Source of the DNA: Escherichia phage GoldenSnicker | Length of the DNA stretch: 64,000 nucleotides | Sequence record: OR896832.1 | Reading direction: 5' to 3' (one strand) | Part shown: positions 3,294 through 22,181 of the stretch, piece by piece | How the letters are laid out: every line of letters starts with the position of its first letter | How positions within the stretch are numbered: position 1 is the first letter of the stretch | Translations under genes and position numbers: made by a program | The notes under the pieces: model-generated | Database searches by the model: none | What the model was told of the DNA's origin: nothing | The model's input: only the letters and a program-made list of their open reading frames with translations

Positions 3294-3517
3294 AATATAT
3301 TCCTCTTAGAAAGGGATGGTCATTTCTTGAGCTTGTACATTTTCGTTAGGATTAAACTTCATCCAACCGATATTGTCTACCAGTATATGCACATTTTTAT
3401 CATATCCTACGTGGGTAGTCAATACTGTATGTGCTTTACCTTCAATGATGAGTTCCATGTACTTCTGAACTTCGATAGCTTTCATTTTGATTCTCCGTTT
3501 GTTGTCTTGATGGGAGT

Positions 3518-3546
3518 ATCTTACTACTCCCTTTAATCATTGTCAA
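3518..3546 (-). promoter_or_regulatory. sigma70-type early promoter with inverted repeat
   Basis: TTGACA (3546..3541), 17 bp, TAAGAT; inverted repeat gggagta/tactccc spans the -10. Confidence 0.45.
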
Positions 3547-3549
3547 CTA

Positions 3550-3753
3550 TTATTTGTTAATTTCCGGTGCGTTGCTTGGATAGTAACCTTCTTTAACACC
3601 CAGATATTTTGCAACCATTCCGGTGATCTTCTGTGCTACTACGATATCGAATTTCAGGTAGTCTTCACCGTGGTTTGCTACAATGTATGCTTCGCATTCT
3701 GCTTTAGTCTGGAACATTTTTGATTCTCCTATATCTCGTTGGTATGTGTGCAT
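3550..3753 (-). CDS. hypothetical small early protein
   Basis: 67-aa ORF with promoter 3752-3781 upstream. Confidence 0.45.
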   Translation of the reverse strand: MHTYQRDIGESKMFQTKAECEAYIVANHGEDYLKFDIVVAQKITGMVAKYLGVKEGYYPSNAPEINK

Positions 3754-3781
3754 TATAGGGGATCACCGATCCCCTGTCAAC
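3752..3781 (-). promoter_or_regulatory. sigma70-type early promoter with palindromic spacer
   Basis: TTGACA (3781..3776), spacer containing ggggatcaccgatcccc inverted repeat, TATAAT (3757..3752). Confidence 0.55.
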
Positions 3782-3785
3782 AACT

Positions 3786-4136
3786 TTATAATGCTTTATA
3801 TGCGTATTTCATAAATTTGTCTGCCACTTCATTGGCATGTTCAGATTCTACGCCTGATTCGAGAACAATAGCTAGGTCGGTTTCGTCATTCCCGCCGTAC
3901 CAATGATTTGATGTTCGATTTTTTTCAATTGGAAATTGGTCACTTTTATCTGTGCGACAAAATACATCTAAATGCTCGTCGATGTAAAAGATCCAATCTT
4001 CATAAAGAATAACGGTATTAGCCAGATTTTTATTGCCTTCAACGAAAGGTTCGGCTACAAACAAATTAGTATGTTCCATAGTATTTTCCTCAAAATTATA
4101 CAGCTTCGTAAACTTCCCAATGTCCAACACCAGCAC
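3786..4136 (-). CDS. hypothetical protein, HxHW/AxDV paralog family (divergent)
   Basis: 116 aa; IFYIDEHL, SNHW, AIVLESGV motifs. Confidence 0.45.
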   Translation of the reverse strand: MLVLDIGKFTKLYNFEENTMEHTNLFVAEPFVEGNKNLANTVILYEDWIFYIDEHLDVFCRTDKSDQFPIEKNRTSNHWYGGNDETDLAIVLESGVESEHANEVADKFMKYAYKAL

Positions 4137-11035: not shown

Positions 11036-12205
11036 TTACCAATCAATCTTATCAGCCGGAATCAGTTTCTTATAATTCCGTAGATAGTAAGTTTTCATTG
11101 AATCCAGAATACGGTCATAATCAAGACCATCAAATGCAATCATCAGACACATGAAAATATATGCTTGTGCATCACCATGTTTACGTGATTCGATAGTCGC
11201 ATTTGATGCATATGTCTTTCTGTCTTCTCCCGCGTGTGCGTTATAAAATTCTGTTGCTGTCGTGAAGGCATTGCGAAGAATAGACCTGAATGCTTCCTCG
11301 AATAGCTCGATTCGTTCCAGTGCTTCCGGTTCGCCTTCATATGCAGCACGCAAATCATCGGTTTCGCTTTCTACGACATAGTAGATCAGGTTATTAGGAA
11401 ACATCGATGTGTTTTTAATGTTATGCACACCAATATACCATTCACTCTTCACCTTGAACATTTGACCGTCTTTAGTGCGTGCAACAATTCCTTCGATACC
11501 TTCTGCGATCCGAACTTCATCAAGAATATTGCTAAAACGCGCTGAATCAACCTGTAACGCATTTACCAGATGAGGACGTAGGATTGCGTCAGAAAATAGC
11601 ATTTGATGCGGTACGTACTCTCCTGTGACGTTATGGCGTACATTCAGAAGTGTTAGCGACGGTTCAGAATATTCTACAACAATTCGGTTGCTGGGCGCTG
11701 TATATTCAAAGTTGAAAGTATAATCAGACCCAATATCAGCAATCTTAGCGCGTAGATCCGCATACTTCTCTGAATACAGAAGACCGTTTGCTCTCTCTGC
11801 CTGGCTTGAGTACAAGGCCGCTTTAGACTTCAACTGAACATAGCCATTATCAATGTATGTGCTTACTAGACTACCGTCCATTTTGTCCATGACCATTTCC
11901 ACATCTTCCGGCTTAAAGCGAGCGCGATCATTCTCGCCTAAATTAAAAAACTTCTCCATAGGACGAGATGCAATGCGGACCGGACGACCTTTATCGTCAA
12001 TTTCAAACATGATCCCGCGACACTCTAACGCATCTGGTTTATTCCACATTTCCGGTTTGCTCAAGTACAGATAACTAAAAATGCGCATACGGGTTTGCAT
12101 CGCCGTAATTTCATCTTTGTAATAGAACGTATCAGATCCGTCACATAGTGCCATCAGATTTTTGAACAATGCTAAAACTTTTTTGTTGTTTTCTTTTGTT
12201 GACAT
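11036..12205 (-). CDS. rnlA: RNA ligase 1
   Basis: PDALECRGIMFE, ASRPMEKFFNLGEN, KMDGSLVSTY (active-site Lys), KDRKTYA as in T4 Rnl1 (gene 63). Confidence 0.85.
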   Translation of the reverse strand: MSTKENNKKVLALFKNLMALCDGSDTFYYKDEITAMQTRMRIFSYLYLSKPEMWNKPDALECRGIMFEIDDKGRPVRIASRPMEKFFNLGENDRARFKPEDVEMVMDKMDGSLVSTYIDNGYVQLKSKAALYSSQAERANGLLYSEKYADLRAKIADIGSDYTFNFEYTAPSNRIVVEYSEPSLTLLNVRHNVTGEYVPHQMLFSDAILRPHLVNALQVDSARFSNILDEVRIAEGIEGIVARTKDGQMFKVKSEWYIGVHNIKNTSMFPNNLIYYVVESETDDLRAAYEGEPEALERIELFEEAFRSILRNAFTTATEFYNAHAGEDRKTYASNATIESRKHGDAQAYIFMCLMIAFDGLDYDRILDSMKTYYLRNYKKLIPADKIDW

Positions 12206-12602
12206 AATTTGTGTTCCATTCTGGTTTAAATTTGGTGATCAAAACAGGTTCTTCGATATCGGCAGTGCTTATAATATCTTTACCCGTTGGATTCTCGATG
12301 TACAACTCAAAACACTGGCGGTAATAGAATGTTACTGTCTTACCTTCCTCTAGCGCCTTATGAATATTCTTACTCTTGCGAGTATCCGCTGTTGGTGTTT
12401 GTCTGTTAATGCTAGTCCGGTAATAATTGATCCGCTTTCTGAGATTAACAGTCTGACCAATGTATACCAGTTCATCATCAACCACAATAGCGTAAAGAAC
12501 ATTTAAACGGTTTTTCTGAGGCGGTAGAATCACATCACCATCTTTACACTCTAAACATGAATATTTAACGAATCCATAGTTTTCTATTAGCTCATTAATC
12601 AT
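12141..12602 (-). CDS. denA: GIY-YIG nuclease, endonuclease II-like
   Basis: VLYAI...VYIGQT...RKRINYYR GIY-YIG core; sits between rnlA and nrdB like T4 denA; could instead be a Seg-type homing enzyme. Confidence 0.55.
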   Translation of the reverse strand: MINELIENYGFVKYSCLECKDGDVILPPQKNRLNVLYAIVVDDELVYIGQTVNLRKRINYYRTSINRQTPTADTRKSKNIHKALEEGKTVTFYYRQCFELYIENPTGKDIISTADIEEPVLITKFKPEWNTNYVNKRKQQKSFSIVQKSDGTM

Positions 12603-13943: not shown

Positions 13944-14420
13944 TTAATCATGACCGTGATTTGCAATATCCGCTCGCGTCTTATCTTTGTGATTTCCTAC
14001 GTCAAAGACACGATAACCATTTTCACGCAAAACTTTAATCACTTCTGGGTTATCCTCAAAGACTCCGACAACTTCATCTTTATCAAAGGATTTAATTACC
14101 TCTAATTTTATGTGATAGTCTTTACGGGAATCGGTACGGCCTCTCATAAAGATTTTATCAAAACACACCCCGTTAGAAATTAACCAATCAATTGTTTCCA
14201 TGTAAGCATGTGAACTTCGTCCGGTGAGGATGTAAATCAAATGCCCGTTGTCGGAAAGAGCATTAATAACACGAATTACATCGTAAATGGGGGAATCACC
14301 CCCACATGCCTTGTTATATTCGATCCATGACTCGACTTTATCAAGATTTTCAGTTGGCATCTTTGCTAGTCGATGCGTTGGATCTGTGATCGTAAAATCT
14401 AAATCGACAAAATATATCAT
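13944..14420 (-). CDS. HAD-family phosphatase (PseT phosphatase-domain-like)
   Basis: N-terminal DLDFTIT (DxDxT), TGR, K and DN motifs of HAD fold; 158 aa. Confidence 0.6.
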   Translation of the reverse strand: MIYFVDLDFTITDPTHRLAKMPTENLDKVESWIEYNKACGGDSPIYDVIRVINALSDNGHLIYILTGRSSHAYMETIDWLISNGVCFDKIFMRGRTDSRKDYHIKLEVIKSFDKDEVVGVFEDNPEVIKVLRENGYRVFDVGNHKDKTRADIANHGHD

Positions 14421-15577
14421 AGATATTTCCCGAATCGGTTGTAGTCATCGTCTGTTAAATCGGTATTAACCTGAGATACCAGATACATAATCTCTACTTC
14501 TTGCGCCGCGTTTTGAACTTCGTCAGAGTTCAACCATTTACGCATCCACGGTAACGGATGACGACGAACACTAAACGGGCTTTTCAGTCCGGCAGCGCGC
14601 ATACGGGAATCTGCCAGGTATTCTACATAGGTTTTCAGAATTTCCGGTGACAGGTTAGGAATTGCCCCCATTGCGAATAGGTGGTCTACCCATTCTTTTT
14701 CTTGCTCGACAACATCCAGAAAGATTTTCGTTGCTTCGCCTTCAAGTTCTTCCGCAATCTGTTTCCACTCATCACCATCAACCCCCGTTTGCCATTGACG
14801 AATAATGTATTGTGTTCCTTTTAAGTGAAGTTGTTCATCACGCGCAATAAATTTCATGATCTTCGCGTTACCTTCCAGTAAACCACGTTCGGCAAAGCTG
14901 AAAGTACATGCAAAGGACACATAAAAACGGATTGCTTCCAGTGCATTTACGCAGTGTGCACACAGATAAATCGAAGCCATCAGATCTCGTTTTGTATCTT
15001 CAAAAAATCTTCTTGCATCATCTAATGCTGTCTGGTCGTCTCGTTCTTCCCAATAGCGGAGATCTTCTTTTGCATTCTCATACTTACGAATCCAATAAAG
15101 AACATCATCATAATATTTCCCGATAGATTCCGCTCGCTTCATGATAGCAGGGTTATCGATGATCTGGTCGAACTCACTAGCCGGATCAATGAAACAGTTA
15201 CGCATAATGTGTGTATAGCTTCGGCTATGAATTGTTTCGCTGAATGTCCATGTTTGCAACCATGTATCGAGAGTTGGATCAGATACAATTGGACCAAATG
15301 CTGCGGACGGTGCGCGACCTTGAATAGAATCAAGTAATGTCTGATACTTCAAGTTTTCAGTAAAGAAACGCTTTTCAACGTCACCCATATTAAGATATTG
15401 AATACGGTCGGTTGCAAGTGAAATTTCTTCGGGTCGCCAAAAAAATGACAATTGCTTTTCGATCAGTTCTTCAAATACTTGATGACGCTGAATATCATAG
15501 CGAGCGATACCCAACCCACTACCCAGAAACATTGGTTCGTTCATAATATCAACATGTTCGCGGTTAAATACGCTCAT
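14417..15577 (-). CDS. nrdB: ribonucleotide reductase small subunit
   Basis: 386-aa uninterrupted ORF with class Ia R2 features, position and size as T4 NrdB. Confidence 0.85.
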   Translation of the reverse strand: MSVFNREHVDIMNEPMFLGSGLGIARYDIQRHQVFEELIEKQLSFFWRPEEISLATDRIQYLNMGDVEKRFFTENLKYQTLLDSIQGRAPSAAFGPIVSDPTLDTWLQTWTFSETIHSRSYTHIMRNCFIDPASEFDQIIDNPAIMKRAESIGKYYDDVLYWIRKYENAKEDLRYWEERDDQTALDDARRFFEDTKRDLMASIYLCAHCVNALEAIRFYVSFACTFSFAERGLLEGNAKIMKFIARDEQLHLKGTQYIIRQWQTGVDGDEWKQIAEELEGEATKIFLDVVEQEKEWVDHLFAMGAIPNLSPEILKTYVEYLADSRMRAAGLKSPFSVRRHPLPWMRKWLNSDEVQNAAQEVEIMYLVSQVNTDLTDDDYNRFGKYL

Positions 15578-15592
15578 TAATTCACCTCACTA

Positions 15593-15760
15593 TCACTTTT
15601 TAACACAAAAGAACTTAGTATTTCTGTTTATTTCGCTATCCTGCTGCAATTCCTGCACAGCTTCAAAACAATTTTGATATGATGAAAACTCTACGCTGGT
15701 AACAGTTCCTTTATTATATACGCCTACGCTAACGGAAAGCAATAACCATAATGTAGCCAT
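15593..15760 (-). CDS. small hypothetical protein, nrdA-nrdB intergenic paralog 1
   Basis: 55 aa, translated codon by codon: MATLWLLLSVSVGVYNKG...FFCVKK; start overlaps upstream stop (TAATG). Confidence 0.45.
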   Translation of the reverse strand: MATLWLLLSVSVGVYNKGTVTSVEFSSYQNCFEAVQELQQDSEINRNTKFFCVKK

Positions 15761-15933
15761 TAGTTCACCTTTTGTTTTTCAACGCAATATAGATTCATAA
15801 AGCGTTTATTGTCTTCGCGGATAATCTCGCGAACTTTAACGCAATCCTGCTTTGTTGCAAACTCAATGCTTGACATATTTCCGTAATTATACATTGAATT
15901 GCTGATTGCAATCAATAACCATACAGTAGCCAT
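15760..15933 (-). CDS. small hypothetical protein, nrdA-nrdB intergenic paralog 2
   Basis: 57 aa: MATVWLLIAISNSMYNYG...LYCVEKQKVN; TAATG coupling at both ends. Confidence 0.45.
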   Translation of the reverse strand: MATVWLLIAISNSMYNYGNMSSIEFATKQDCVKVREIIREDNKRFMNLYCVEKQKVN

Positions 15934-16100
15934 TATCCTACAACCTCAAAACATTTATCATCAGGAAGAATCGCCCATTCTACACCGTATTCATCCTCGA
16001 CGTAGTAGCAAGTCCCATCATGTCGAGCATCATATTCATCACCAACAACAAAGCTATCAGCTAGCTCAAAATCTACAGCAACACATTTTAATTTGGTCAT
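15933..16100 (-). CDS. small hypothetical acidic protein
   Basis: 55 aa from internal ATG after GAGGA SD; listed ORF start reads through the promoter. Confidence 0.4.
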   Translation of the reverse strand: MTKLKCVAVDFELADSFVVGDEYDARHDGTCYYVEDEYGVEWAILPDDKCFEVVG

Positions 16101-16131
16101 AATAAAATCCTCACTTGTTTTTGATGGTTGT

Positions 16132-16160
16132 ATTATAGCGGGGATTTCTCCCCGCGTCAA
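16132..16160 (-). promoter_or_regulatory. sigma70-type early promoter
   Basis: TTGACG (16160..16155), 17 bp, TATAAT (16137..16132); inverted repeat ggggagaaatcccc nearby. Confidence 0.5.
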
Positions 16161-16168
16161 CACTTATT

Positions 16169-18412
16169 TTACAGCTTGCAAGATGAGCACTCGCTAGCGT
16201 CTTCCGTACCATCAGCACCGTCGCGAACGTTCGCATAATACAGGGTTTTCAGACCGTAATATTGAGCAAACAACATATCATCTAACACATCAGCAATATC
16301 GACTTTACCAGTCTTATAAGTGCTTGGATCGTAGGATGTGTTGGAACTAATCGCCTGATCCACAAACTTCTGCATGATCGCTGCCAGTGTCAGATAAGGC
16401 TTGTTACCTTTCTTGATCAGTGTCCAAAGCAGGTCAATAACATCAGCATTATTCTCTACGTTCGGAATAACCTGATTAAATTGCCCTTCTTTCGATCCTT
16501 TAACCGATACAATCCCGCGAGGCGGTTCAATACCATTTGTGCTGTTAGACACCTGAGAGGACGACTCACAAGGCATCAGCGCCGACAGTGTACTGTTACG
16601 AATGCCATATTTTTTCAGGTCTTCGCGCAGTTCTTCCCAATCCATCTCATACACCGGATCAACCAGTTCATCTACTGTCTTTTTGTACCAGTCGATAGGA
16701 AGTTCACCGCGACCATAGCGTGTTTCGTGCATCAGTTCGCAAGCACCCTTCTCTTTAGCCAGTTGCACACTAGCCTTAATCAGAGCATATTGCAAGCGTT
16801 CAAACGTTTTATGCGTAAACTCGTTAGCGTCTTCATATGTGAAGAAATTATCTGCTAGATATGATGCAAAGTTAGTCACACCAACACCCAGAGAGCGACG
16901 TTTTTTGGCTGTCAGAGCTTGTTCTACAGGATAATCCTGATAATCTAACAGGTTGTCAAGTGCACGCACCATAACCATAGCAATGCGTTCTACTTCTTCC
17001 ATATTTTCGATATCGAAATTACCTAAAACATATGCTGCCAAAGTACATAGGCTAATTTCTGAATCATCACGACCCATCGGTTTTGTAGGCAGAGCAATTT
17101 CACAACACAGGTTAGATTGTTTAATCGGTGCTACATTACGAATAAACGCCCCGTGATTGTTCATGTTGTCTGTGAACGCTGGGTAGATTCGACCAGTGTT
17201 AAAACGTTCAATTGCCACCGCTAAAAACAGGTCTTCGGCTTTAACACGAGTTTTACGAACACTCGGATCTTTTTCCAGTTTTTCGTAAAGCTGGCGGAAA
17301 CCTTCCTCATCTCGGAAGTATAGATCCCACAACAAGCCACCCGCAACATCTGGACTAAACAGAGTAATGTAATCCCGTTTAAGGAATCGCTCTACCATCA
17401 GGTTATTAATCTGTACGCCGTAATCAAGATGACGAATGCGGTTATCTTCCACCCCCTTATTGTTCTTTAACACAATCAGACTTTCAAACTCTAAATGCCA
17501 CATTGGGTAATAGAGAGTCGCTGCCCCGCCACGAATACCGCCTTGTGAGCATGACTTAACGGCAGTCTGAAAATGTTTCCAGAATGGGATAACGCCAGTA
17601 TGACGAACTTCACCATGCCCGATCTTAGACCCTTCCGCGCGAATCATGCCAGCGTTGATACCGATACCAGCACGCTTGCTAATATACTTAATGATTGCAT
17701 TTGCGGTTTCATTAATACCCTGCAATGAGTCATCACTTTCAATCACCACACACGAACTAAATTGGCGTGTTGGGGTACGCACACCTGCCATAATCGGAGT
17801 AGGCAGAGAGATTTGCTTATTCGCAACAGCATTATAAAAATCAATCACATGTTCAAGTCGATTTTCTGTCTCTTCTTGATGCAAGCACATACCGATCAGC
17901 ATATACGCAAATTGCGGTGTTTCGATGATTTTCTTAGTGCTGCGATCCTGAACAAGATATTTCTCTTTTAACTGCATCGCACCAGCATAGGTCATTTTAA
18001 AATCAAGTTTATGGTCGATGAATTTCTCCAGATATTCCACTTCTTCACGGGAATACTTTTGTAGAATTTCGCGATCATATTTTCCGGTTGCAATATTACG
18101 CTCAATATGGCTATAAAAATCAATAGGTTGGAATTGACCGTATACTGATTTACGAAGCGCGAACATTGCAAGGTTACTTGCTACATATTGATAATCAGGC
18201 GTTTCTACAGTGATGTTATCTGCGGCGACCTTAATCAATACTTTCTGGATATCATTGGTAGACATACCTTCTGTCAGAAGTGGTTCAACCATATCAAACA
18301 ATTCATATGGATCAACGTTATGACCTTCGGCTGCCGCTTCCAGAATTTTCATTACTTTTTCTTTTTCAAACGGAACAGTCAGACCGGAAGACTTAACAAC
18401 ATTTTTAATCAT
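16169..18412 (-). CDS. nrdA: ribonucleotide reductase large subunit
   Basis: 747 aa; near-colinear with T4/E. coli NrdA (PTRQFSSCVVIE, NLCCEIA, SALMPCESSSQVSNSTNG, C-terminal CSSCKL). Confidence 0.9.
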   Translation of the reverse strand: MIKNVVKSSGLTVPFEKEKVMKILEAAAEGHNVDPYELFDMVEPLLTEGMSTNDIQKVLIKVAADNITVETPDYQYVASNLAMFALRKSVYGQFQPIDFYSHIERNIATGKYDREILQKYSREEVEYLEKFIDHKLDFKMTYAGAMQLKEKYLVQDRSTKKIIETPQFAYMLIGMCLHQEETENRLEHVIDFYNAVANKQISLPTPIMAGVRTPTRQFSSCVVIESDDSLQGINETANAIIKYISKRAGIGINAGMIRAEGSKIGHGEVRHTGVIPFWKHFQTAVKSCSQGGIRGGAATLYYPMWHLEFESLIVLKNNKGVEDNRIRHLDYGVQINNLMVERFLKRDYITLFSPDVAGGLLWDLYFRDEEGFRQLYEKLEKDPSVRKTRVKAEDLFLAVAIERFNTGRIYPAFTDNMNNHGAFIRNVAPIKQSNLCCEIALPTKPMGRDDSEISLCTLAAYVLGNFDIENMEEVERIAMVMVRALDNLLDYQDYPVEQALTAKKRRSLGVGVTNFASYLADNFFTYEDANEFTHKTFERLQYALIKASVQLAKEKGACELMHETRYGRGELPIDWYKKTVDELVDPVYEMDWEELREDLKKYGIRNSTLSALMPCESSSQVSNSTNGIEPPRGIVSVKGSKEGQFNQVIPNVENNADVIDLLWTLIKKGNKPYLTLAAIMQKFVDQAISSNTSYDPSTYKTGKVDIADVLDDMLFAQYYGLKTLYYANVRDGADGTEDASECSSCKL

Positions 18413-18479
18413 ATTACCTCACTTCATATTTTAGCAGGAACAAGTTTATCCTCCATATTGGGGGCTTTCGCCCCCTTTG

Positions 18480-19700
18480 TTATACTGCCATTTGAGCGGT
18501 GATCGCTGGATGGCTTTGATAGTTGTGAATTTTAAAATCTTTCGGAGTCTTTGTCAATACCTCATCTAAAGATTTAAATTCCGGCAACTCAATTGTTGGT
18601 TTATCAAACGGAACACGGCTTAACTGTTCCATAACTTGATCAAAATGGTTTTTATAAATGTGAGTATCTCCACCAGAGAAAATCAGTTCTCCTACCTCAA
18701 GATCACACATTTTCGCTATGATGTGAGTTAACAGCGCATAGCTGGCGACGTTAAAGGGCAAGCCTAAAAAGCTGTCTACGCTTCGCTGAAACCACATACA
18801 AGACAGTTTACCTTCATTGACGTAGAATTGCACGAAAGGATGACATACACCTAACACAGCATTATGCGTTTCCTGTACGTTCCATGAATCAATGATAATA
18901 CGACGACTATATGGATCATTCTTGATCATGTCAATAACTTTTTGTAACTGGTCTTCCCAAATCTTCGGGCGATAGACATATTCTTCATCGTCTTTAGTGC
19001 TTGATGTGTCTACGTCCATACTAACAAACATCGTGGTATCCGGTGCTATAATATCCCCACCCAGATAATCACTATCAAGCAGATAACCGAAATAACCATC
19101 ATCTACCCATTCCTGGAATCCCCACAAGCAATATGCATCATTAACAAAATTAGATTGAGTCTTCCAGTGGTCTGCTACCAGAATATAATCAAACTCTTCA
19201 TAACGCATACCACGCCAGATAGCACATAAACGGTCTTCTGTTTCATTGGTTGGCGTAAAGTCTTCTACCCACGGGTGTTTAAATGTATGTGTATATTTGC
19301 TCTTAACGCGCTTAATTTTGATTTCACCGTGTGGATGAATCGGTTTGCGTCGCCACGCCATACCATACATATTGCCGACATTATAACCATTGAATCGCAA
19401 AGGATTCTTTTCTTTCATATCAAGGCAGTTTCCGCGCCAAATATCAAAGGCTTCCTCGTCAAACTTGCCGCGTGTAATTTCCTGTAAGCGACGGCGGTCA
19501 AGTGACCCCTCCATAAACCATAGCAACTCGCCAATTATAGAGGCTGTAGCCATCTTTTTAGTGGTCAGTAATGGAAAACCCTTACTTAAATCAATTCGCA
19601 TCTCTGCGCCGAATTTAGAGAGCGTACCTACCCCAGTTCGGTCTTCACGAGGCCAGCCATTATCAAGAACATCACGCAACAGTTTCAAATATTCTTTCAT
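18480..19700 (-). CDS. td: thymidylate synthase with ~110-aa internal insertion
   Basis: ThyA motifs (DRTGTG-like, DSWNV, CHPFVQFY, FLGLPFNVASYALL, GDTHIY); extra segment between the GxxWR and DPxSRR motifs; no intron. Confidence 0.85.
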   Translation of the reverse strand: MKEYLKLLRDVLDNGWPREDRTGVGTLSKFGAEMRIDLSKGFPLLTTKKMATASIIGELLWFMEGSLDRRRLQEITRGKFDEEAFDIWRGNCLDMKEKNPLRFNGYNVGNMYGMAWRRKPIHPHGEIKIKRVKSKYTHTFKHPWVEDFTPTNETEDRLCAIWRGMRYEEFDYILVADHWKTQSNFVNDAYCLWGFQEWVDDGYFGYLLDSDYLGGDIIAPDTTMFVSMDVDTSSTKDDEEYVYRPKIWEDQLQKVIDMIKNDPYSRRIIIDSWNVQETHNAVLGVCHPFVQFYVNEGKLSCMWFQRSVDSFLGLPFNVASYALLTHIIAKMCDLEVGELIFSGGDTHIYKNHFDQVMEQLSRVPFDKPTIELPEFKSLDEVLTKTPKDFKIHNYQSHPAITAQMAV

Positions 19701-19935
19701 CCCACTTCCCCTTTTTCTTTGCTTTCTTACGCAGTTTTGCTACTGTCTCGCTAATGTTAATAAAAATATCGTCTGGACCGAATACAGTAACAGGTCTTGA
19801 TATATCGCTATTTTCTTGTACAGGAAACCATGACGCTTTCGATTCATCATAGAGATATTGCAACCCGTAAAGATCTTCTGCTACTGCGTAGTTTTCATTG
19901 GTTGCCGACCATAATCGAATAATACTGATTTTCAT
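19672..19935 (-). CDS. hypothetical protein
   Basis: 87 aa from ATG overlapping the upstream stop; Lys-rich C-terminus. Confidence 0.4.
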   Translation of the reverse strand: MKISIIRLWSATNENYAVAEDLYGLQYLYDESKASWFPVQENSDISRPVTVFGPDDIFINISETVAKLRKKAKKKGKWDERIFETVA

Positions 19936-20027
19936 TATTGTTCCCGTCCGCAGTGTAAACACCGACTACCAACAAACATCAAAGATTCACCGCAATGTTT
20001 GCACTCATAATCTGTCAGAATTTTCAT
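19935..20027 (-). CDS. 30-aa zinc-ribbon peptide
   Basis: MKILTDYECKHCGESLMFVGSRCLHCGREQ, two CxxC pairs, translated by hand; below the ORF-track size cutoff. Confidence 0.4.
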   Translation of the reverse strand: MKILTDYECKHCGESLMFVGSRCLHCGREQ

Positions 20028-20028
20028 G

Positions 20029-20610
20029 TTACGCCTTCTTACGTTCTAAAATTTGCTCACTGATCAGGTAATTATCAAGGAAGTAATTATGTTCTTCTTT
20101 TGCTGCAAAGTCAAAATATAATTCCTGAATCATTTCCTTAGATATACCAACATCATATTCGAACGGATCATTAATTCCTGCTCGTTGAACATACGTTAAC
20201 ACAATACGGTCCGCAAAGTCAACCGCTTTTTCAATCAGGGAAGGTCCGCCAATAACGCTTACCAAACCTTGCAATTTCTCTATGACTTCTAATAATTCCT
20301 TCAATCCACCATCATTAGTAATCGCGGTATACACATCTGGTTGGTCGCCGTTTTTTGCTTTCGGTGCTGGCTTACTGGTATCGGTGCTAACAACCACATT
20401 CACACGACCTTCCAGTGCTTTAGGGAGACTTTCAAAGGTATTACGTCCCATTACAACCGCCGCAAGTTCAACATCTCCCATAGTGCGCATTTTAAAGTTT
20501 TCCATGTCCTTTTTAATTGGACGCCCCCAGGGTAAACCGCCTTTAAAACCAAAAGCCCAATTTTCATCTGACATTTTAGTGTCACCAATAGCAAATACAC
20601 ATTGAATCAT
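20029..20610 (-). CDS. frd: dihydrofolate reductase
   Basis: AFGxxGGLPWGRPIKKDMENFK and VIGGP motifs; size and position as T4 frd. Confidence 0.8.
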   Translation of the reverse strand: MIQCVFAIGDTKMSDENWAFGFKGGLPWGRPIKKDMENFKMRTMGDVELAAVVMGRNTFESLPKALEGRVNVVVSTDTSKPAPKAKNGDQPDVYTAITNDGGLKELLEVIEKLQGLVSVIGGPSLIEKAVDFADRIVLTYVQRAGINDPFEYDVGISKEMIQELYFDFAAKEEHNYFLDNYLISEQILERKKA

Positions 20611-20625
20611 AATATAAATCTCCCA

Positions 20626-20955
20626 TCAAATCAGTTTGAAATAGTTTTCGTTTACATTTTCTTCTGTGATTGCTGTCTTAAATTCTTGACCGTTATCCGG
20701 TGTGATGAAATAACGGTCAGAATAATCACGAAAACGTTTTAAGTGAGATACCCCAACATTAACACCATTTTCCCAAAAACGAAAGGTAATCATTTTTGGT
20801 TCATATCGATAGTCGCTGGTTAACACAGTACCATCCCCGCGACGGGCTTCATAAACCGTAATACATTCACGATTAGCGGCTTTAAGGCATTCTTCAATAG
20901 TGCCGCACGAGATAATACTTACTTTTTCATCTACGATTTGTTCTACAGTCCACAT
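20626..20955 (-). CDS. hypothetical protein
   Basis: about 110 aa from the internal Met. Confidence 0.4.
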   Translation of the reverse strand: MWTVEQIVDEKVSIISCGTIEECLKAANRECITVYEARRGDGTVLTSDYRYEPKMITFRFWENGVNVGVSHLKRFRDYSDRYFITPDNGQEFKTAITEENVNENYFKLI

Positions 20956-21002
20956 AATATAATCCTCTCTTTGTTTCGATATGTGCATTATACACTATTG
21001 CG

Positions 21003-22181
21003 TTACGCTGTCAACTCTTTTTCAAAAGATTTTACGATATACATGATGGTGCTCAATTCGGACGGCGCTACTGTCTCTGTGTAGCCATCCGGCATATCTT
21101 CTTTCGAGATATAGGAAGTTTTACCTTTCATTACTTCCTTGATTTTGTTCTCTAATTCTAAGATCTTTTGACCGTCTTGTAAAGTCAATTCATAAAAGAT
21201 CTCATGATCGAACTTTGAAACACGAGATTGGTTTCTCATGCGCTCATGTGTTTCTTTGTTTGTTATTCCAAATTTCACGCCAACAAAGGAATCATTGTTG
21301 GTTAATTTCTGTATATAAAGAGTTCCTGTCTTTAATGCCTGATAACCATGCTTAGAACACAACGGGCAGCGTGTTCCGCGATTAACAAAATTATCAATAG
21401 TTACATCCCATTCATGGTTACGTTCGCATGTCAGAAGTATTCTTGTTAATGCACCTTTCCACTTTCCTGAAATCCCAATAAATTTTAGTCTGTTGGTTTC
21501 GCATATTTTTTCAATTTGTTTTAATCGGTCACTTTTTGTTATTGGTGCTGTTCCGCTACATTTGCGACACCGACGACCTAGTTTGAACTTATCATAACTT
21601 TGTTCGTAAATGTGATTATTAGGACACTCAAATTTAAGTTTAGTTTTTGTTCCTCTCCATTCCCCAATTATACCCAAAAATTTATAATCTCCTTTATTTT
21701 CATTTATATAAGATAAGGAATCTTCTTTATCATGCATCTTGCCCCCGTTACATAAAGGACATCTTGTTTTTTGATGAATGAAATCTGTATATGTTGGTTG
21801 GTATGTGTGTCCGTTTGTACAGTTCATAATGAGTCTTGTTCTGCTATTTTTATACTCCCCACCAACAAAACCAACAAATACATCGTTTGTTTCTTGTTTT
21901 ATTCTTTCTATCACATTGTTTGGGTTTAATCTTTGAGAATCAACCACACATTTCTTACACGAAACGTTTTTCCTGATATTTGCTAGAGTTGATGTGTATT
22001 CATGCTTGTTATTACATAATATAAGAGCTTTTGTTTTGAGACCAGACCATTCTCCAACAAACCCCATGAAAGAATAACCAACTTCCAAACATGAATTTTT
22101 TACAACATTTTCCCAATAGAAGGGAGTTTTCGTGTTTCCTTTTATTTCTATACTAATCTCATGTGCTTGACGTACTAACAT
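21003..22181 (-). CDS. protein with four tandem C-H-C-C zinc-ribbon repeats and a GIY-YIG-like C-terminal domain
   Basis: four ~66-aa repeats (F[VI]GxxGxWxGxxT...C..NxH...F...RCxxC); C-terminus LYIQKL...GVKFGIT...R resembles the T5orf172/GIY-YIG family. Confidence 0.6.
   Translation of the reverse strand: MLVRQAHEISIEIKGNTKTPFYWENVVKNSCLEVGYSFMGFVGEWSGLKTKALILCNNKHEYTSTLANIRKNVSCKKCVVDSQRLNPNNVIERIKQETNDVFVGFVGGEYKNSRTRLIMNCTNGHTYQPTYTDFIHQKTRCPLCNGGKMHDKEDSLSYINENKGDYKFLGIIGEWRGTKTKLKFECPNNHIYEQSYDKFKLGRRCRKCSGTAPITKSDRLKQIEKICETNRLKFIGISGKWKGALTRILLTCERNHEWDVTIDNFVNRGTRCPLCSKHGYQALKTGTLYIQKLTNNDSFVGVKFGITNKETHERMRNQSRVSKFDHEIFYELTLQDGQKILELENKIKEVMKGKTSYISKEDMPDGYTETVAPSELSTIMYIVKSFEKELTA

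Follow-up and report, generated by a model that had tools for sequence, protein, structure and literature searches.

What is the large extra segment in the thymidylate synthase (TS) of RB49-like phages, and how did it get there? The question is raised by the td gene of Escherichia phage GoldenSnicker (sequence record OR896832.1), whose genome is that of a Krischvirus, an RB49-like member of the T4 group. In the stretch of 64,000 nucleotides (nt) analysed here (the window), td lies on the minus strand at 18480..19700 as a single open reading frame (ORF) of 406 amino acids (aa), which encodes a ThyA-type TS with a nested domain. The initial annotation had noticed a TS with a large in-frame insertion and the lack of introns in td and nrdB, and these observations stand, whereas the size ascribed to the insertion and the analogy with the insert of Lactobacillus casei TS had to be abandoned. 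The insert is probably a decayed, unspliced, in-frame remnant of a homing-endonuclease-like gene nested in a surface loop of the enzyme; td is intron-free yet, as far as can be judged from sequence comparisons, is likely to carry the fossil of a mobile element.

The td Gene and the Enzyme It Encodes

A 1.6-kb query spanning td matched 58 phage records at 93–96% nucleotide identity, nearly all of them from Escherichia or Shigella phages assigned to Krischvirus. A comparison of td in related phages had been proposed in the initial annotation, and the same long gene is present in all 58 records. The gene order around it is T4-like: gp32 – (392-aa ORF) – frd – td – nrdA – nrdB.

The td product matches PF00303 in two stretches on either side of the insert (283.8 bits against a cut-off of 24.3), as well as phrog_160 (E 9e-101) and TS sequences from the PDB (E 4e-70), in agreement with the early statement that it aligns with ThyA-type enzymes at both ends and in the core. 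The N-terminal part of the TS core (residues 1–117; 19350..19700, minus strand) ends in the motif GNMYGMAWR and aligns to residues 1–99 of E. coli ThyA, with ThyA 1–82 corresponding to Td 1–82. The C-terminal part (residues 250–406 plus the stop codon; 18480..18953, minus strand) contains the catalytic C286 and aligns to ThyA 110–264 (E 1e-48). Equivalents were sought for the E. coli ThyA residues R21, E58, Y94, R126/R127, C146, H147, R166, S167, D169, N177, H207, and Y209, and the catalytic and binding residues are all kept in Td: R21, E58, Y112, W116, R117, R266, R267, C286, H287, R306, S307, D309, N317, H347, and Y349. Asn rather than Asp at position 317 presumably fits specificity for dUMP rather than dCMP. 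Td has the ThyA-type TS fold, and, judged by its residues, td encodes a catalytically complete enzyme of this type.

The start of td overlaps by 29 nt (19672–19700) the 3′ end of an upstream 96-aa ORF (19672–19962), and this overlap is kept in the relatives L013 and L014 (3760–4029 vs. td 4001), which suggests translational coupling of td with the upstream ORF. Past the other end of the gene, where 67 nt separate td from nrdA, a perfect GC-rich palindromic hairpin, GGGGGC-TTTC-GCCCCC, occupies positions 18460–18475; in phage vB_EcoM_G37-3, the corresponding position carries a putative-terminator annotation. In a promoter and terminator scan of the td region, promoter-like sites were no more numerous than in shuffled sequence.

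An Insert Predicted to Fold as a Stalked Domain

Between R117 and D250, Td has 132 residues (residues 118–249; 18954..19349, minus strand), as compared with 5 residues in the same gap of T4-type Td (RB51; DFGGV in T4) and 10 in E. coli; the net gain amounts to 122–127 aa, so that the first estimate of about 110 aa was too small. Alignment bears out the location first given to the segment, between the GxxWR and DPxSRR motifs, and places it in a surface loop between the GxxYGxxWR (YGxxWR) motif and the DQ helix (DQ...DPxSRR). The proposal that this is also the site of the insert in L. casei TS did not survive the alignment. Both are lineage-specific in-frame expansions between the IWDEW helix and the DQ helix, but the 50-aa insert of L. 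casei lies between IWDEW and GDLGxVYG (alignment columns 103–153), i.e., upstream of WR, whereas the td insert is downstream of it. Moreover, the L. casei insert shows no detectable similarity to the td insert and no relation to endonuclease-like proteins.

As initially described, the segment is in frame, rich in tryptophan and acidic (Trp 4.5%, net charge −10, pI 4.85), with the globular part reaching a pI of 4.05. Its GC content is 40.9% vs. 41.2% in the TS core. Structure prediction, also recommended at the outset, gives the insert a confident compact fold (pLDDT 95.7) without any low-confidence segment. According to the model, the insert is held off the enzyme core as a folded domain on a two-stranded β stalk. 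Stalk strand 1 is a predicted β strand (E118–130) formed by residues 118–130, RKPIHPHGEIKIK (19311..19349, minus strand), and its motif is common to the aligned TS inserts of this site (site B), being weaker in P0013–P0016, and is absent from the free-standing homologs described below. It pairs with stalk strand 2, the predicted strand E241–250 formed by residues 241–250, YVYRPKIWED (18951..18980, minus strand), in which the V/Y-x-R-P motif is conserved in all site-B inserts.

Relationship of the Insert to Endonuclease-Like Proteins

A word-indexed protein search with the insert alone found nothing, and exhaustive HMMER searching was needed. When residues 101–250 were compared by phmmer with 1.84e9 representatives, only 16 matches were obtained, all of them TS proteins with an insert at the same loop; the window insert matches long TS inserts at E 3e-19 to 1e-10. 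An indexed search with full-length Td returned 411–414-aa proteins at 60% identity from another T4-like lineage, and 441–613-aa proteins at about 40% identity, including that of Klebsiella phage phiKp_21; the TS of Klebsiella phage KP13-7 is likewise of the long form. At least 178 phage records align over 80% or more of Td. A scan of IMG/VR contributed only two further close loci.

The long inserts (245–285 aa) consist of three modules: a β-rich N-module, a helical plus β-β-α module, and a C-module with helix-turn-helix (HTH) character. The β-β-α unit bears an invariant D-K-D...Y-S...T-x-x-F...N signature, and in the intact forms helix 183–189, with a nearly invariant Asn, is followed by a C-module of about 40–55 aa. 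Long inserts are homologous to a family of free-standing phage proteins, as follows from profile comparison by hhalign (probability 99.9%, E 2.8e-35), and they match phrog_2081, named “HNH endonuclease”, at E 1e-16 to 5e-39, as well as phrog_953, 374, and 3377. The signature in the form D-K-D...Y-S...T-C-x-F...N is invariant in the free-standing members and in the intact TS inserts alike. A Foldseek search with the model of a long insert (pLDDT 87.7) against viral predicted structures gave 50 matches at E ≤ 1e-3, with a further insert-bearing TS at the top of the list and several proteins designated homing endonucleases among the rest.

It is via the long inserts (E 3e-19) that the window insert is similar to this D-K-D family, and it is the counterpart of their middle module only, with no residue left of the N-module and 6 left of the C-module, as against 51–73 and 39–57 in intact forms. 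The helical bundle of residues 153–200 (19101..19244, minus strand; helices H153–171, 177–180, 182–189, and 195–200) is the counterpart of the W..M..R / W.NF.NF / GFQEWVD helices of the intact module and can be aligned with the long inserts and the free-standing proteins, with the RVYNPR loop deleted in the window. It is followed by a degenerate β hairpin, residues 206–227, YLLDSDYLGGDIIAPDTTMFVS (19020..19085, minus strand; strands E206–209 and E224–227), a relic of the D-K-D...Y-S...T-C-x-F signature that reads L-D-S-D-Y and I-A-P-D-T-T-M-F, with Ser for the family-invariant Lys and I-A for Y-S. Past the hairpin no helix is predicted: an acidic coil, residues 228–240, MDVDTSSTKDDEE (18981..19019, minus strand), stands in place of the Asn-bearing helix and the C-terminal HTH module of the intact forms.

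Relatives of the long inserts were detected by tblastn in 749 phage records, and the free-standing ones are proteins of 178–254 aa; g045 of Yersinia phage fPS-54-ocr and VPHD51_0030 of Vibrio phage D51 are examples. The profile of the D-K-D family embraces at least 1,307 proteins whose core has no Pfam annotation; the sole accessory Pfam domains in the family are AP2 and an I-HmuI NUMOD-like domain. In known homing endonucleases, AP2 and NUMOD-like domains are the usual DNA-binding partners of HNH catalytic domains, and therefore the D-K-D module sits where a nuclease domain would be. In two T7-like phages, Yersinia phage fPS-54-ocr (L003 651–3190) and Edwardsiella phage WCT72P1 (L021 282–2802), the gene for the large terminase subunit is split by a family member of 178–201 aa; in Bacillus phage BSP15, a member lies within a DNA polymerase gene that is split, Vibrio phage D51 has one flanked by sbcD and sbcC, and in Bacteroides phage SJC03 one is part of a tRNA cluster. 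Judged by these genomic settings, the free-standing members occupy classic homing-endonuclease positions and behave like homing endonuclease genes. The genomic contexts together with the domain architecture suggest that the family possesses site-specific endonuclease activity and is capable of homing.

Evidence for Mobility and Decay of Inserts in Phage TS Genes

In two phages, an intact copy of the same module occupies a second site of TS, delimited by IWDxW and GxxYGxQW, namely in the 491-aa TS of Enterococcus phage vB_EfaM_A2 (L004 1590–3065) and the 527-aa TS of Tenacibaculum phage PTm1 (L006 1599–3182). This second site is the position of the L. casei insert. The presence of the module at two sites implies at least two independent in-frame insertions into TS. 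Apart from the module, the TS of PTm1 has a further large insertion (about 40 aa) past the CH motif.

Genes with and without the element can be compared in syntenic phage contigs, where all four genes of the comparison are situated. Two TS proteins with inserts of 281–284 aa (P0017 and P0018) have cores that are 83–84% identical to insert-less TS of syntenic phages; these cores are as near to the insert-less TS as to each other, while the other insert-bearing TS reach only 57–66%. The insert takes the place of a 33-aa native loop, and its GC content is 4–6 points below that of the TS core.

One of the insert-less relatives of the long-form phages (L026) has a 188-aa ORF between the DHFR and TS genes (3490–4056), with an N-terminal CxxC...CxxC motif and hydrophobic C-terminal segments. 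This ORF overlaps an N-terminally extended td start and is absent from the insert-bearing relatives L025 and L027.

A comparison of 31 insert-bearing TS proteins yields a series of forms. Inserts of at least 194 aa all keep LDKD(Y/F), YS..T..F, and N..L, save that of P0122 (228 aa), in which the signature is lost; in those of 176 aa or less, the signature is gone without exception, together with the N- and C-modules. The relatedness of the TS cores points to separate origins of the short forms in four or more TS lineages. The charge differs too: the pI is 8.6–9.6 for the free-standing proteins and 8.3–9.6 for the intact inserts (except P0022, 7.7), as against 4.85 for the Krischvirus insert. 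The window copy, with D-S-D for D-K-D, I-A for Y-S, and neither flanking module nor Asn helix left, is one of the most strongly reduced forms. The sister T4-like lineage (P0003–P0005) has retained an insert of similar reduction, about 50% identical to that of Krischvirus.

Selection and Variation in Krischvirus td

The ratio of nonsynonymous to synonymous polymorphism (pN/pS), calculated from 11 Krischvirus td genes, is 0.216 for the insert, 0.095 for the TS core, and 0.026 for the N-terminal core, and it falls to 0.06 in the stalk region (residues 121–150). The corresponding ratio for divergence (dN/dS) of the insert is 0.12–0.24 in unsaturated pairs. These values indicate that the insert is under purifying selection. 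Synonymous divergence is low in some close pairs, for which nucleotide-level constraint or a recent sweep was considered; this explanation was rejected in favour of pairwise mosaicism, since pS over the 11 genomes is similar in the insert (0.145) and the N-terminal core (0.157).

The insert is also polymorphic in length, with a 4-aa indel at about 19175–19190 (td codons 171–175): the 406-aa proteins have D-(Y/C)-I-L where the 410-aa proteins, including that of RB49, have D-S-E-Y-N-(Q/L)-F-L. The indel falls exactly at the site of the lost ancestral RVYNPR loop.

A Proposed History of the Insert

We infer an invasion followed by decay. In the ancestor of Krischvirus and its sister T4-like phages, td would have been invaded in frame by a D-K-D endonuclease-like element, which would have been translated as part of Td and never removed at the RNA or protein level, and in vivo the transcript and the protein presumably remain unspliced today. 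Intact three-module copies of 245–285 aa, putative endonucleases, are still present in this loop of TS from other phages. Once the element had been fixed, in-frame deletions in the Krischvirus lineage would have taken the Asn-bearing helix along with the N- and C-modules, mutations would have altered the signature (D-K-D to D-S-D, Y-S to I-A), and the domain would have turned acidic. Because of the loss of modules and signature and the acidic shift, the Krischvirus insert has most likely ceased to cut or bind DNA. The remnant may persist because it is unlikely to be excised precisely and because TS would suffer if the insert misfolded or was deleted imprecisely; alternatively, the domain may have gained a secondary role.

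A number of observations weigh against this history. The link between the window insert and the free-standing family is transitive: the insert alone matches phrog_2081 only at E 0.09, and hhalign gives a probability of only 77% (E 2e-5) when short Krischvirus-type inserts are compared with the family directly. Searches of Pfam, NCBIfam, and PDB sequences with the inserts and the free-standing homologs returned no usable family, the sole entries being F-box, Spin-Ssty, and a borderline HTH_psq on the C-module of P0022. Even with the threshold relaxed to E ≤ 1–10, HNH-type Pfam profiles (PF01844, PF13392, PF13395, and similar) gave no match to the Td of the window or to either the long inserts or their free-standing homologs, and no HNH family occurs among the precomputed domains of the 120 best D-K-D family members. 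The canonical catalytic His of HNH nucleases, at the end of β1, is replaced by Lys in all intact members and is Ser in the window insert, and no His is invariant anywhere in the family. The “endonuclease” label rests on PHROG annotation, architecture, and genomic context, and no biochemically characterised family member was found in the literature. The with/without pair (L025/L027 vs. L026/L028) is not recent, with about 71% nucleotide identity, and there is no co-conversion tract around the insertion point, all four td genes being about 70–74% identical along their length; therefore, homing is deduced and not proven by this pair. Finally, a genuine function of the insert would account for the purifying selection equally well.

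Alternative Explanations

The initial annotation had named two ways in which its reading could fail, a sequencing frameshift and splicing of the segment at the RNA or protein level. That the ORF is an artefact of sequencing, assembly, or annotation, such as a frameshift fusing two genes, has practically no probability left and was rejected: 58 independent genomes and several metagenomic contigs share the ORF, the flanking TS motifs are in one frame, and no supporting point was found. Splicing has a precedent, as td is the classic intron target in T4-type phages, being in several pieces with an annotated homing endonuclease in Tequatrovirus records, and TS inteins have been discussed for other phages. 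Nevertheless, it is most improbable that an intein or intron leaves a mature Td of ordinary size here. A search for such signatures, as had been advised, found none: an Rfam scan of 14000–21000 at E ≤ 1 revealed no group I intron or other family, save one chance-level 5.8S match; the td product has no Hint/intein Pfam domain; and the junctions, W116-R117|R118-K-P and W248-E249|D250-Q, are not intein-like, as the N-junction lacks a Cys, Ser, or Thr and the C-junction lacks His-Asn followed by one of these residues. The reading frame runs through without a break, synonymous changes are in excess at the codon level, and the predicted model integrates the segment as a stalked domain with pLDDT > 90. 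The nrdB gene (14417..15577, minus strand) is likewise a single ORF, of 386 aa (PF00268, E 1.3e-43 over residues 32–337), so that the early claim of uninterrupted td and nrdB genes is upheld; that RB49 is without group I introns has already been published (PMC1524935). Nor is it to be expected that the nested Krischvirus insert still acts as a homing endonuclease. Intact members of its endonuclease-like family do occupy the same TS loop, but the insert itself has lost the invariant Lys and the Tyr-Ser pair as well as the Asn helix and two whole modules, the N-terminal one and the HTH; it is acidic, its GC content is fully ameliorated, and, since every Krischvirus record carries it, there is no empty target within the genus. 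Gradual growth of a loop as a lineage-specific elaboration of TS, with no mobile element involved, is very unlikely as well. TS does tolerate lineage-specific inserts in this general region, as the 50-aa insert of L. casei and the short insert past the WR motif in eukaryotic TS illustrate; however, the td segment shares homology with distinct modules found in free-standing phage proteins, its site differs from that of L. casei, and related TS genes carry either the full three-module element or none.

A more serious competitor, though still rather unlikely, is an exapted accessory domain, i.e., an endonuclease-derived remnant kept for a function of its own, possibly as an acidic docking surface for the T4-type dNTP-synthesising complex or for replication proteins, or in TS regulation. 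It agrees with the proposed history as to origin and differs only as to the present role. The purifying selection on the insert (pN/pS 0.216; dN/dS 0.12–0.24), its fixation in all 58 Krischvirus records, its retention in the sister lineage at about 50% identity, the confident compact fold with a highly conserved stalk (pN/pS 0.06), and the markedly acidic surface that it has acquired (globular part at pI 4.05) would all suit a retained function. On the other hand, no partner or activity is evidenced, and selection on the insert is about twofold more relaxed than on the TS core. Constraint is expected for any domain within an important enzyme, given that TS would be inactivated if the domain misfolded or was deleted out of frame. 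Other lineages have shrunk the element differently, which resembles decay more than convergence on one useful form, and T4-type Td works with a 5-residue loop at the site.

The reading of the insert as a decayed remnant explains a feature that has gone unremarked in GenBank under the plain name “thymidylate synthase” (e.g., RB49, AY343333) and corrects the impression that td of the RB49 type is free of mobile-element history. It would make phage TS the host of a recurrent arrangement in which an endonuclease-like gene lies in the host frame without splicing machinery and leaves graded in-frame decay products. Intact forms, decayed forms, empty alleles in syntenic phages, and free-standing relatives all exist as sequences and form a testable system that bears on the entry and persistence of selfish endonucleases in important genes, on the tolerance of enzymes to domain insertions, and on the origin of new viral protein domains. 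It also draws attention to a large family (at least 1,307 proteins) that has neither a Pfam model nor the canonical HNH histidine. It is tempting, though only as a tentative suggestion with the odds somewhat against it, to regard the intact 245–285-aa forms as active homing endonucleases residing as permanent unspliced nested domains, with TS and nuclease in one polypeptide. If so, selfish endonuclease genes would have a further route besides introns, inteins, and free-standing genes, the β stalk would be an adaptation letting the host protein tolerate the element, and the Krischvirus domain would be the end stage, a fossil without clean excision that is maybe newly used.

Comparison with Known Systems

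No account of an endonuclease-derived nested TS domain or of the td insert of RB49 was found in the literature covered, with the RB49 genome paper (PMC135041) standing outside the search. The closest precedent found is the ShiLan domain of actinobacteriophage DNA methylases, described by Arsenault, Gosselin, and Gogarten in 2025 and interpreted as a homing element retained in the mature protein (PMC11855218). In both cases, an insertion derived from a mobile element is read through in frame with a phage gene, with no detectable intron or intein features, and a stalked or looped projection from the host protein is predicted. The ShiLan HNH, however, is encoded in an alternate frame, its in-frame product being only a loop, whereas here the module itself is in the TS frame. 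A hidden ORF of the ShiLan kind was excluded for the td insert: in the alternate frames of the td strand within the insert, the longest ORF is 41 aa and has no nuclease features. The two cases also differ in the host gene, the endonuclease family, and the phage group, as well as in their state, actively spreading in ShiLan and a decayed fossil in Krischvirus.

In T4-like phages, conserved genes of nucleotide metabolism and replication are invaded by selfish genes that leave “genes in pieces”, as exemplified by mobE in nrdA of Aeromonas phage Aeh1, a free-standing gene-splitting homing endonuclease (PMC3045599; reviewed in PMC2988022). The targets are similar, but the selfish genes of that type have start and stop codons of their own and break the host gene into two polypeptides, whereas the td insert has no internal start or stop codons, and host and element form one chain. 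An arrangement resembling that of Aeh1 nrdA/mobE occurs in a metagenomic T4-like phage that carries the td of P0005 (L015 4689–7876), where nrdA is split into 476-aa and 324-aa pieces flanking a 237-aa ORF with a faint I-HmuI NUMOD-like match.

With the group I intron of T4 td (I-TevI) and with inteins, the td insert shares its location at a conserved site of such a gene and, in the proposed history, a cycle of invasion, fixation, and decay. It differs in that those elements remove themselves by splicing, while no splicing apparatus is detectable in the window td, and we take the site of the insert to be different from that of the T4 td intron. From HNH, or β-β-α-Me, nucleases such as I-HmuI, the HNH-AP2 homing endonucleases, and PacI, the window insert is set apart by having neither a Pfam HNH match nor the catalytic His.

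Neighbouring Genes

Directly downstream of td, nrdA (16169..18412, minus strand) is a single 747-aa ORF, annotated under this name in related records. In some of the close relatives within Krischvirus, a DNA methylase gene, or a pair of them, is inserted in the td-nrdA-nrdB region (L014 7587–8426; also phage vB_EcoM_011D4), where the window has none, and this presence or absence marks a variable spot beside conserved nucleotide-metabolism genes.

Between the frd-proximal ORFs and gene 32 lies a 392-aa ORF (21003–22181, minus strand), whose product combines a treble-clef zinc finger (DUF4379) with CapR homology domains in four repeats (PF21817, E 8e-29). At a GC content of about 0.33, the ORF is markedly poorer in GC than its neighbours (about 0.40), and it differs in length from relative to relative (L013, 340 aa; L014, 405 aa); possibly the gene was acquired or is mobile. 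A 153-aa ORF (12141–12602, minus strand) overlaps the start of the next, RNA ligase-like ORF of 389 aa (11036–12205) and has a borderline match to the GIY-YIG catalytic domain (22.5 bits vs. a cut-off of 22.6); it may be a small seg-like homing endonuclease gene.

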